64,000 nt of DNA from Octopus vulgaris (lineage: Eukaryota), in NCBI GenBank assembly GCA_951406725.2, contig OX597828.1, positions 56,606,001 to 56,670,000 on the forward strand, read 5' to 3'. Under the pieces are notes generated by a model. It saw only the letters and a program-made list of their open reading frames with translations. It ran no database searches and had not been told where the DNA came from. Position numbers and translations under genes: made by a program. Shown here piece by piece: positions 12,158-60,984 of this stretch (position 1 is its first letter; every line of letters starts with the position of its first letter).

Positions 12158-12244
12158 AGTGGCTGAAGATTGCTCGACATTTTAAACTGATATAATACTT
12201 ACAGTGTTTAATAAAATGAAGTAGCATGAAACAATTGTACTACT
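12158..12244 (+). ncRNA. Type-I hammerhead-like motif (canonical CUGAAGA core, long loop II) in a short Penelope-type relic
   Basis: AGTGG-CTGAAGA-T-TGCT..(~48 nt)..AGCA-T-GAAA-CAATTG-TA-CTACT. Stem I AGTGG/CTACT, palindromic stem III ACAATTGT, GUA site. Confidence 0.6.
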
Positions 12245-12799
12245 CTACCTTGGATATACTTGTTGCTTATTTTGATTATAATCACCTCATTTGATTTATA
12301 TGGATAATACCATACAAAATTCTGGTGCCTGTAACTTAAGTACCATATTCATCTGAATCTAAATTTTGCTGAACTTATATATATATATAGAAATAAAATA
12401 TATATATATATATATATATATATATATATATATATATATATATATATATATATATATGCGTGTGTGTATAAATATATGCTTATATGAATACTTACATGCA
12501 CATACACACAGATGCATACACACGCTCGTATATGGTTTGGATCAAGATCGTAGAAGTATCTTGCGGATACACGCTATTCCAAGATATTCCTAGCGCACCT
12601 GGTACGGTTACAAACTTTTCATTAGATTAAATATATTTCCAGAAAATTTGAATTTATAACGTAAATTACGAAATTAATGATTTATTACTTTACAAAAACT
12701 TTACATTTTCATATGCCATTATTTGGCAGCCCACTCCTAATTTGTTTCGTAGACCACGTTCTATTTCTCATTTATTTTCAATCTGAACTATTAAATTCT

Positions 12800-13000
12800 T
12801 TATCCCAAATGTGTCACCCAGTACTAAAATTGTTTTCTTTTCTTTATCTGAAACAATCGCATGCTTCACTCCCTTGGGCAACCAAATCTACTGAAAATAT
12901 CAGTTTTAATATCATTTCTATTCTCAATGAGACAGGACTTAACCAGATTTTCTCGACTACATTATATTCATATTAAATCCAGCCAATTCTGCAGCTTCTG
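12800..13000 (-). pseudogene. Decayed YWTD-like exon fragment
   Basis: Minus strand RIGWI*YE*YVVEKIWLS...FGCPRE...*YWVTH across frameshifts. Confidence 0.45.
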
Positions 13001-13415
13001 TGCACCTGCTGTACATATCAGTGAATCATAATCAAATAACAATTCGTCATAAATGTATGATCATCTCAAGAGAGCAAAGCAATTGAATATTTTCTTATAT
13101 CGTAAGTAGATTTATGAAACAGATTCTTAAATACCTAAACATAATACATTTATATATGCATATGCAGACACAGACATACACAAACACACGCACACACACA
13201 CACACACACACACACACACACACACACACACACATATATATATATATATATATATATATATATATATATATATATATATATATATATATATATATATATA
13301 AGTGTGTTTGTGTGTGTGTGTGTATATATAAGGATGAAAAGGAACACACGAGTTGATATATATGAAAAAATAAGTTAAAATAGAAAATGCTAAAATAATT
13401 TTATAAAGAACATTT

Positions 13416-13453
13416 CAGTACCGGTTTCAGTCATTTTGAGACCTTTTCAACTG
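13416..13453 (-). ncRNA. Minimal hammerhead-like motif, U3-A8 core variant (left inverted pLTR)
   Basis: Minus strand CAG-TTGAAAA-GGTC-TCAAAAT-GACT-GAAA-CCGG-TA-CTG. Confidence 0.65.
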
Positions 13454-13516
13454 TAACGATTAAATAATTAAATTTAGAAAAATTAAAAGACACCATCCTC
13501 CAAAAAAGACCACAGA

Positions 13517-14058
13517 ATGAATACAATCCTCCAAACACACACGATCATAAAAAGCAAGAGACAGCCTAAATCTATGAAAAGTCTCCTAACACAAGCCCGA
13601 ATACACTCTTCAACACAGACGCCGACAGTAAAAAAATGTGGAAGACCCAATTGCGGGATATGTGATTATCTAATTGAGGGATCAGAGTTCTCCTTCAAAC
13701 AGGGACAACGGTAAAAAGCAACTTCACATGTGATTCGGAGAACCTGATATACACACTAACCTGCTCTGGGTGTCAAGAGCAGTACATAGGCCAAACGAAA
13801 AATAGTTTGCGTAAAAGAATGGCCCTGCACAGATCCCAGATAAAAATTCCCCAAAATAGAAAAATAACATTCAGCCAACACAGAGTTACTTGCGCCAACA
13901 ACAAAATACCAAACTTCAGGATTTTCCCCCTCTACCATTTCAGGAACGATACAAACTCGAACCAACGAATAAGTAAAGAAACTCTCTTTATTACAAAATA
14001 TAAGCCTCTTCTGAACGGGTCTACGACAAACGAAATATACACCTCGGCTTTAGAATAA
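13517..14058 (+). pseudogene. Penelope-like GIY-YIG endonuclease C-terminus, one frameshift near 13711
   Basis: KKCGRPNCGICDYL linker, then from 13711 KSNFTCDSENLIYTLTCSGCQEQYIGQTKNSLRKRMALH...FSQH...KETLFI (IY-CxxC-YIG, conserved R, H, H, E). Confidence 0.88.
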
Positions 14059-14824
14059 CAGAAATCCACACGCAAATATTACATTCCTAAGAATCCATTA
14101 CAAATCAGCCCCAATCACAGCTATAACCCATAACGTGCCAACTTTAAGTCATACAACACCTCACTACTTCCACTCATTCATATTCTCCCTCCTCTTTCTT
14201 CTTCTTCTTCTTCTTCTTCTTCTTCCCCCTCTTCTTCATCATCATTATCATCATCATCATCATCATTATCTACTTCCTCTTCTTCTTCAGCATCATCAAC
14301 ATCGTCGTCATCATCATCATCATCATCATCATCATCTTCTTATTCTTCTTCTTCTTCACTTCTTCTTCTTCTTCTTCTTCTACTTCTTCTTCTTCATTTC
14401 TTCTTCTTCTTCTTCTTCTTCACTTCTTCTTCTTCTTCACTTTTTCTTCTTCTTCATCTTCTTCGTCTTCGTCTTCTTCTCCCCTTCTACTTACTAACTT
14501 TATCACTAATGCTTTTTAGTATAACGCCTACGCAAATTCTATAAACAAATCTTTCAATAGAAATATTCTCATGAACTGCTAGCCGCCACAGACCAATCAA
14601 AATACAACAATCAAGGCAAACCCAAATTTTCTCTCCCTCTCCTCATCATCCTTCTTCTTCTTCCCTACCAAGAATTCACAACGACCTCGAACCCACAAGT
14701 ATGAACAAGAGAGACAGAGCAAGGCAGAAACAAGGAAAATGCCACATATATTTGAACACTATACAAATATTCCTTTAAAAAAACATTTCTTTTAATTTTT
14801 CTAAATATAATTATTTAATCGCTA

Positions 14825-14862
14825 CAGTTGAAAAGGTCTCAAAATGATTGAAACCGGTACTG
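14825..14862 (+). ncRNA. Minimal hammerhead-like motif, U3-A8 core variant (3' pLTR)
   Basis: CAG-TTGAAAA-GGTC-TCAAAAT-GATT-GAAA-CCGG-TA-CTG. Palindromic stem III ACCGGT, GUA site. Confidence 0.6.
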
Positions 14863-59399: not shown

Positions 59400-59558
59400 T
59401 TTGGAGCTCGAGTGTGCTGGAAAACATTACAAGGTGATAACGCAAAAGAAAAGCGTCCGTGTTATGTCCCTTGGTCTACCAATCTACATTTCATTATTTT
59501 AGCGACCTCTATATTTGATGGTCGAGCAAACAGTGGCATAGCATGGTATAATATACAT
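59400..59558 (-). pseudogene. Decayed YWTD exon
   Basis: gtactcag|..CILYHAMPLFARPSNIEVAKIMKCRLVDQGT*HGRFSFAL. Confidence 0.5.
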
Positions 59559-59679
59559 CTGAGTACATATGGAAAATGCATAAAATATGTCATTCGTACC
59601 CACTGTAAACAGTAAGTATATATACTATATATATATATATATATATATATATATATATATGAATCAAATATAAAATATA

Positions 59680-60150
59680 AAATATAAATTACAAAGTGGG
59701 ACAAGAACGCAAAAACACACAAAGAGACGACACAAAAAAAACAGACAGGTCACTCGAAACCTCTAATCTTCAGTCGGAACCGGATCATCTTACCAATTTC
59801 GGCTGTTTAATCTCGATATAACTCCGAACCGGCCAGCCCCAAGAACTAAGCCACAGGCATTAGATTTCTTAGAAAGAGGACGAATGTATACGAAACAAAG
59901 ACAGGATGCCACACGAATATAAATACAAGAAACAAAAAATAGAAATAAAAAACAAGAATGTTTAGCAGAACAAACACAACGGGCGTCTTACGACTTTAGA
60001 CAATTTTTAACTTATCTTGGCTGGCGTATTTGAAAAATGCCTTTGCGGCAAAAACGAAAACAAACGTTAACATGGCAGCGGTGGTCAAGCCGAAAAAGAC
60101 CGGTTTCAATGCGGTCACGTGAGAGCACGGAAGAAAGAGAAAGAAATATA
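59680..60150. mobile_element. Unclassified interspersed repeat embedded in (TA)n
   Basis: GC-richer block with strand-biased composition bounded by TA tracts. Similar in style to 1-250. Confidence 0.4.
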
Positions 60151-60204
60151 TATGTATATATATATATATATATATATATATATATATATACATACATACA
60201 TATA

Positions 60205-60320
60205 TAGGGAGAGTTCACGGAAAAAACAAAAGCCAAAGACAGCTGGTGTACAAAACAAACAGATGTATTAGTATAATGCTCAGGAATAGAAAACGTCTTT
60301 TACGTTTCGAGCCTACGCTC
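60205..60320 (-). mobile_element. Second copy of the 16512-family relic, hammerhead truncated by (GA)n
   Basis: Minus strand (GA)n-GAGC-GTAG-GCTC-GAAA-CG-TA-AAAGAC. Confidence 0.7.
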
Positions 60321-60477
60321 TCTCTCTCTCTCTCTCTCTCTCTCTATATATATATATATATATATATATATATATATATATAGAGAGAGAGAGAGAGAGA
60401 GAGAGAGAGAGAGAGAGAGAAGATTAAGGGAGAGATATGTATATACACGTATGTTTGCATGTATTCTTTTGTTCTTT

Positions 60478-60680
60478 AACATAGTTCAGTCATTTGACTG
60501 CAGACATACCGTAGCACCAAGTTAAAGGCTTTTAGCCGAAGAACACAACCCCAGGACTTATGTTTTGTGAGCACAGTACTTATTCTATCGATTTTTTTTG
60601 CCGAAACGCTAAGGTTCGGAACATAAATGCACCAACATCGGTTGTCAAGCGTTGTTGTTGGGTAGACACACACACACACA
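60478..60680 (-). mobile_element. SINE family B, 3' half
   Basis: TTCAGTCATTTGACTGC...CACCAACATCGGTTGTCAAGCG. Confidence 0.8.
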
Positions 60681-60932
60681 TACATATATATATATATATA
60701 TATATATATATATATATATATATATAATAGATAATGGTGTAATTGAGACCCAAAGGTGTTAGGTAATGCTGAATAAGTGCTATAGACAGACAATATTTAA
60801 GCTCCAGATTCGGTAATATTGCGAATAAAGGTTTCAACGTTGGTTCTATGTCAGCGTGTCTATATAAGAATTTTTGTGTAATAAGATAAAAAAATTAGGC
60901 TGTGTAGATATTAAACCATTTATAGATAGAAG

Positions 60933-60984
60933 GTCGTAGAGCTGTTTCTAGGGTATTAATTAATAATATCCCTTCATCGGAGAC
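60933..60984 (-). ncRNA. Decayed type-I hammerhead motif
   Basis: Minus strand GTCT-CCGATGA-AGGGATATTA-TTAAT-TAATACCCTA-GAAA-CAGCTC-TA-CGAC. The copy at 27775-27790 restores CAGCTG-TA-AGAC. Confidence 0.55.

Follow-up and report, generated by a model that had tools for sequence, protein, structure and literature searches.

Hammerhead motifs in the window

The window, a 64,000-nucleotide (64-kb) stretch of the Octopus vulgaris genome (contig OX597828.1, positions 56,606,001 to 56,670,000 of the forward strand; 2.8-Gb assembly GCA_951406725.2), has a G+C content of 33%, is rich in microsatellites and contains nine hammerhead ribozyme motifs belonging to five repeat families, here termed A to E. 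The majority form of each family has an open stem I, a stem II, GAAA, a short palindromic stem III and UH. All nine motifs of the original prediction were located with the layout, cores and palindromes it had given, apart from the family core at 60933 and 27743, which is CCGAUGA and not CUGAUGA; its estimate of about five families also stood. A homology search of the window with family seeds returned exactly these nine and no tenth. Five copies are structurally whole, two are decayed and two are 5'-truncated.

Family A is represented by a whole motif at 12158-12244 (+), with the canonical core CUGAAGA, a long branched stem II, the palindrome ACAAUUGU and A17, situated in a 5'-truncated element end. 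Family B has whole motifs at 13416-13453 (-), with a U3-A8 pair, the palindrome ACCGGU and A17, and at 14825-14862 (+), with one G-U pair in stem II, as well as an older, decayed copy with a broken palindrome at 21893-21926 (+). The first two flank a frameshifted GIY-YIG endonuclease fragment (13493-14055, +) with an upstream CX4CX2C linker of the Neptune/Nematis type. The motif at 14825-14862 lies about 770 nt past the endonuclease stop and about 50 nt ahead of a (TA)n junction, and marks the 3' end of a Penelope-like insertion whose inverted 5' arm carries the motif at 13416. As these two are arms of a single 5'-inverted insertion, the nine sites correspond to eight insertions.

Family C has a whole motif at 16588-16625 (+), with a fixed U6 core (CUGUNGA), the palindrome ACGU and A17, and a 5'-truncated copy at 60296-60322 (-) from which the core strand is missing. 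The whole family D motif at 46167-46216 (+) has a swapped G3-C8 core (GUGAACA), the palindrome AAUAUU and U17, and its element ends at about 46297. The family D 3' end is present a second time, inverted and with its tail running on leftward, at 46072-46147 (-), a 5' inversion typical of Penelope-like insertions. Family E is present as a copy 5'-truncated within the core at 27744-27790 (+), with the palindrome ACAGCUGU intact, and as a decayed copy at 60933-60984 (-) that has the C4 core CCGAUGA and a broken palindrome and stem I.

Density and chance occurrence

The motifs were scanned for with G5, A9, GAAA, a palindromic 15.1-16.1, a non-G at position 17 and two stems fixed and positions 3, 4, 6, 7 and 8 free. 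In the window this gave 3 strict matches against 0.20 expected and 4 relaxed matches against 0.90 (30 block shuffles). A 1.4-Mb genome sample, made up of 140 stretches of 10 kb spaced evenly across 30 contigs, gave 33 strict matches, 26 of them with a Watson-Crick 3-8 pair, compared with 22 (8 paired) over five shuffles, or 2-7 per shuffle; the relaxed matches numbered 74 (54 paired) against 92 (31 paired) over the five shuffles. The predicted excess of relaxed-core motifs over shuffled DNA was thus observed. Homology matches numbered 123 in the 1.4 Mb, decayed copies included, and none in three shuffles. The population is very large, as had been proposed, at a rate of 1 per 11.4 kb instead of about 1 per 7 kb, and a density of 1 per 11.4 kb makes nine motifs in 64 kb unremarkable (Poisson P=0.12). 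Extrapolation would give about 250,000 motifs genome-wide, decayed copies included.

It is very improbable that the motifs arose by chance resemblance or are neutral relics, copied along with the elements under no selection. It would fit the decay or truncation of four of the nine window copies and the roughly 18 chance hits per 1.4 Mb that a loose descriptor yields. For the families, however, it is contradicted by the 33 strict hits against 2-7 in shuffles, by the anticipated covariation of stems I and II between related families and by a conserved motif island within diverging flanks; it holds only in that single dispersed copies decay.

Penelope-like carrier elements

An endonuclease (EN) lies in the same orientation about 0.8-1.1 kb upstream of the motif in families B, C, D and E, which together with the fold bears out the assignment to minimal type-I hammerheads of Penelope-like elements (PLEs). 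In family B, an EN with the YIG motif occurs upstream in the window and in 6 of 30 loci, and the window fragment has 82-83% identity, in two pieces, to the EN part of a longer copy at locus L132. The reverse transcriptase (RT) of a long family B copy matches Pfam RVT_1 (E=1.6e-7); one of the two family B RT pieces and the family B EN piece gave no Pfam match. Family C occurs at L126 as a partial tandem in the order RT-EN-hammerhead-EN-hammerhead, with an EN also at L041, and an RT frame 94% like the L126 copy matches RVT_1 (E=3.2e-9). In family D the EN is upstream in 4 of 30 loci and inverted in 2 further ones, and shares one frame with the region upstream of it; it matches Pfam GIY-YIG at E=4.6e-4, below the curated cut-off, and the protein grouped with HTH_animal clusters in a protein-cluster atlas (0.96). 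Among four long family E copies translated, two contain an EN and only EN was seen, with no RT.

The cysteine linker in families B, C and D is that given for Neptune and Nematis in PMC8557442, and the family E EN matches the Hydra-clade endonuclease alignment in the supplement of that paper; these clade likenesses come from comparing EN motifs by eye. Copies show 5' truncation, inverted 5' copies, partial tandems, tails and (TA)n junctions, as EN-positive PLEs do. By these sequence features, five repeat families left the motifs as remnants of their 3' ends, and four of the families (B-E) are Penelope-like. Family A is likely Penelope-like as well, since its motif layout matches that of Hydra-clade hammerheads.

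The window copies are dispersed or in inverted pairs, and no tandem array of short hammerhead units, the arrangement of retrozymes without long terminal repeats (non-LTR retrozymes), was found among them. Elsewhere, L283:8567-9743 (-) carries three identical C4-core hammerheads with the palindrome ACGUACGU, 588 nt apart, in a retrozyme-like tandem array. L264:6119-8268 holds two canonical hammerheads on one strand, separated by 1,068 nt, and an inverted third copy, with the palindrome ACAAUUGU. A 1.7-kb tandem duplication with two family E ends and a U3-G8 core was seen at L128:5002 and 6704 (-).

Core variation among families

Genome-wide copy counts rest on exact-anchor matches and are therefore lower bounds. 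Family A, with a canonical C3-G8 core and long stem II, gave 2628 first-look candidates, of which 40 were scored. Family B has 204 copies, and each of the first 100 listed carries U3 and A8. Family C has 16,446 (N7 free), with U6 in 96 of the first 100 listed; N7 in these was A in 25, C in 20, G in 11 and U in 44 (both counted by eye). Family D has 5,162 copies, with G3 and C8 both present in about 94 of the first 100 listed, and family E has 360, with C4 in about 92 of the first 100 (by eye). The cores of families A (C-G), B (U-A) and D (G-C) are either CUGANGA or a Watson-Crick 3-8 swap of it. Families C (U6) and E (C4) break the rule of invariant U4 and A6 and are variants instead of consensus members.

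The U6 and C4 letters are family-wide core states and not decay. The family C-like pattern with A6 gave just 185 matches against 16,446 with U6. A canonical A6 subfamily inside family C was considered on account of these matches; their N7 is mixed, and they are best read as scattered mutation (flanks not seen).

When the 264 hits from all loci were clustered, 15 multi-copy clusters formed, of which 14 were kept as families, five targeted and nine untargeted (8 C-G, 1 U-A). Cluster 13 (CUGCCGA, two copies) was dropped as a likely chance fold with a G-U-rich stem I. Positions 3 and 8, which had been unconstrained, pair in 14 of 14 families: 11 C-G, 2 U-A, 1 G-C and no A-U. Just 8 of 26 single hits pair there, and 31 of 92 relaxed shuffled hits. 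Watson-Crick 3-8 covariation, a central claim of the original prediction, thus holds between families.

The 44 intact hits of multi-copy families, a count that leaves out a double reading of cluster 6 and one mis-registered cluster 14 hit, comprise 13 CUGANGA, 12 U6, 7 C4, 4 U3-A8, 2 G3-C8 and 6 other cores. C4 is recurrent, being the main core of clusters 5 and 6 and appearing also in 4 and 9. As had been suspected, most of this population escapes CUGANGA-only descriptors, which miss about 70% of the intact family copies in this sample (31/44). Rfam had no hammerhead match in the window at the gathering threshold, none at E<=5 among the window matches listed (150 of 264) and none at E<=10 for the family C and D motif stretches.

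Two further families or relatives were observed. L013:335 is related to family A; its palindrome is unchanged, and both stem I and stem II carry compensatory changes. L231:5005, L237:5902 and L257:5648 form a second U3-A8 family with the palindrome AAUU and U17, unrelated in sequence to family B.

Family C and the U6 lineage

A tree of 63 of 79 copies, with the core and H17 masked and 16 copies left out, most for microsatellite-cut flanks, separates a 50-row U6 lineage (49 with U6) from a 13-row A6 sister lineage in which many copies have C4. From this split, U6 is probably derived. N7 tracks subfamilies within the U6 lineage, and stem I covaries between the two lineages (CUUU/AAAG versus GUUU/AAAC). 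Only N7 among 36 motif columns has a second allele at 10% or more, versus 28 of 76 flank columns (p=5e-5, an optimistic value because the row-collecting patterns fixed part of the motif, namely part of its 3' half, while positions 3-8 and the stem I 5' strand were free). In contigs of four public runs with four organism labels, N7 and H17 were the main variable family C motif sites, and no alternative letters were listed at positions 3-6, 8 and 9 (2% cut). The tree is too shallow for the constancy of U6 alone to prove selection for U.

Folding of natural U6 copies predicts that, in the monomer, U4-G5-U6 pairs with the palindrome (mean P 0.4-0.98). This pairing of U6 monomers is only a lead, since predictions for the A6 sister lineage also show alternative rods. 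A compensation between positions 6 and 17 (A6-U17 to U6-A17) was considered and rejected, as U6 occurs with U17 in the G7 subfamily and A6 with A17 in other families. The A6 sister lineage (L166:4974, L166:8237, L185:6871, L291:5145 and others) has C4 (CCGACGA) as its commonest form. At C18:76866133-76898790, three A6 copies of the family C motif lie about 16.3 kb apart, probably through segmental tandem duplication.

Palindromes and proposed dimerization

The original prediction had proposed that the palindrome could act as a family-specific dimerization code. Fifteen palindromes occur among 21 families or single motifs, and of the 210 pairs 200 differ and 10 share one. The sharing arises because ACGT recurs in three, ACAATTGT in four and ACATATGT in two families or single motifs, and the palindrome alone is therefore not such a code. 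The double-hammerhead model also has the strands of stem I swapped (PMC4209133, PMC6765202), so that any specificity would be joint.

A selected code made of the palindrome and stem I together, which would favor same-family dimers in trans and exclude other families, is quite unlikely. The diversity of palindromes is what it would produce, as are the 8 of 10 palindrome-sharing pairs that have just 0-1 bp of cross stem I. The remaining 2 pairs, however, cross-pair with 3 bp both ways, ACGT and ACAATTGT are common to several families, and ACGU is dominant across animals in the PMC4209133 alignment. The predicted palindrome duplexes are also weak (AATT +2.2, AATATT -0.2 and ACGT -1.7 kcal/mol), and drift with compensation would yield equal diversity without selection for exclusion. 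Of nine dimers folded, three formed stem III between the molecules and kept stem II intact; such minimum-energy folds do not score the hammerhead core.

Probable cleavage and possible structural roles

Comparison of copies shows the predicted hammerhead fold at the element 3' ends to be under selection; dimerization, cleavage and a processing role we infer. It is fairly probable that each motif is a minimal type-I hammerhead acting in slow dimeric cleavage of element transcripts. Two copies would pair via the palindromic stem III and the swapped stem I strands and then cleave slowly, probably processing the tandem or read-through transcript of the element. A tandem transcript would supply the dimer partner in cis (as suggested by PMC4209133 and PMC6765202), and partner choice would come from stem I and stem III jointly and from the shared transcript rather than from the palindrome alone. 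Selection on the fold would act in active master elements, the dispersed copies presumably being fossils.

The 3-8 swaps are predicted to be neutral; a G3-C8 swap restores activity and the other CUGA-region mutants were all low in PMC9901934. Slower ribozymes are predicted for U6 and C4, which lineages that went on amplifying would nevertheless have tolerated. In PMC4209133, a Schistosoma motif showed weak cleavage that depended on dimers, and rates in vitro were low.

Several observations weigh against dimeric cleavage. The 5' ends of copies within 3 nt of the cut site number 2 of 55 in family C, 1 of 20 in D, 1 of 12 in E and 0 of 23 in A, which is no pile-up (family B was excluded because the (TA)n tail of its query matched thousands of microsatellites). 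Inserted copies extend 40-100 nt beyond an uncut site, and most copies are solitary. U6 and C4 cores, with predicted low activity, account for 19 of the 44 intact family hits. Family A had no EN motif or protein upstream in 28 loci, which share just 100-300 nt upstream. The optimism of the family C probability given above also belongs here. Finally, A17 occurs in 2 of 4 U3-A8 motifs or families (window 13416-13453 and L212:5705), and in family B its pairing with U3 could extend stem I over the cut site; a comparable C3-G17 trap in hammerheads is described in PMC3884650. As abundant lineages carry U6 or C4, the original claim of selection for activity stands for the fold and is not supported for efficient cleavage.

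The fold might instead persist chiefly as a structural signal, such as one that the RT-endonuclease of the element uses to recognize or position the 3' end, with cleavage slight or dispensable, so that damaging core changes can fix. Such a role would accommodate a U6 fixed across the 50-row lineage while N7 changes between subfamilies, the 16,446 copies against 185 with A6, C4 as the main core in several clusters, the missing pile-up of 5' ends, the predicted U4-G5-U6 pairing with the palindrome and the low in vitro rates (PMC4209133). It is nevertheless unlikely. The motifs retain G5, A9, GAAA, a non-G at 17 and a 3-8 pair that covaries in three ways, all features that matter for the catalytic conformation. 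Natural A6C and U4C variants also retain low activity (PMC3088659), and the alternative rods are predicted for the A6 sister lineage too.

Beyond slow dimeric cleavage, we raise tentatively, and at rather long odds, that the most successful Penelope lineages, with the complete fold retained, fixed U6 and C4, which cripple hammerheads in the laboratory. The motif would then be either a non-cutting structure recognized by the RT-endonuclease or one that cuts through an active site assisted by dimerization or protein, under looser core rules.

Relation to known hammerheads

PMC4209133 already describes the motif class with its U3-A8 variant, 9a base and palindromic stem III, as well as the dimer model and copy numbers in the thousands. 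The minimal hammerheads described there by Cervera and de la Pena (2014) sit in pseudo-LTRs of metazoan PLEs and resemble those of the window in their open stem I, extra 9a base and palindromic 15.2-16.2, in the presence of many families per genome with mostly solitary truncated copies and opposite-strand pairs, and in a U3-A8 variant with about 1,300 hits in Schistosoma. They differ in that the 56-motif alignment of that paper is without G3-C8, U6 and C4 cores and without a cephalopod, and its counts of 2,000-9,000 are far below the roughly 250,000 extrapolated here. The PLE hammerheads of Lunse, Weinberg and Breaker (RNA Biol 14:1499; via PMC6765202) likewise are of type I with a short palindromic stem III and dimer cleavage.

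An octopus PLE hammerhead is already in the supplement of PMC8557442 (Craig et al. 2021), where the Hydra-clade hammerheads, including Hydra-1_Obim, have an 8-9-nt stem III (ACNNNNGU). This stem III recurs in the present motifs, as do the additional base at either side of stem II, (TA)n as target and the endonuclease type of family E. The Hydra-clade cores listed there are all CUGANGA, whereas family E has C4 with a perfect palindrome.

Non-LTR retrozymes (PMC7229834; bioRxiv 10.64898/2026.07.22.740005) also have type-I hammerheads tied to PLE pseudo-LTRs and large copy numbers, a coral having 6,000 motifs of 16 families and the axolotl 126,247 (PMC7229834); they are tandem arrays, unlike the nine dispersed element ends of the window.

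Natural core variants such as U3-A8, A6C, U4C and U10.1-U11.1 (Perreault et al. 2011, PMC3088659; Naghdi et al. 2020, PMC7151607) affect the same positions. A6C cleaves slowly with Mg2+ and does better with Mn2+ (PMC3088659, PMC7151607), its preference for Mn2+ being noted in PMC7151607, and U4C still permits viroid infection (PMC3088659). The variants in these two papers are rare and mostly tertiary-stabilized, whereas here U6, not C6, is fixed in >16,000 minimal-motif copies. Natural G3-C8 and U6 cores were not found in the literature examined; Lunse et al. 2017, outside that literature, may list G3-C8, U6 or C4.

PLE hammerheads have low in vitro rates, and some clades are reported without them. 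Here a single genome supplies >12 families that differ in core and stems; among them are a natural G3-C8 swap and a U6 fixed in tens of thousands of copies. What is unusual is that core letters predicted to weaken cutting persist in very abundant families. The natural allelic series (C3-G8, U3-A8, G3-C8, U6 and C4) could show whether cleavage or just the fold is selected.

Other features of the window

Two CUGACGA heptamers at 56926 (+) and 56973 (-) face each other in a short inverted repeat, in which no GAAA half was seen. An abundant interspersed repeat, which we take to be similar to a short interspersed nuclear element, lies at 7743-8158, 29674-30336, 51279-51540 and 58225-58664 and has >200 overlapping matches in the 1.4-Mb sample. 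Among the window open frames considered (at least 100 aa), the one at 38380-38880 (-) resembles by eye the C-terminal part of an RT of the long interspersed nuclear element type, and similar frames occur in several loci.

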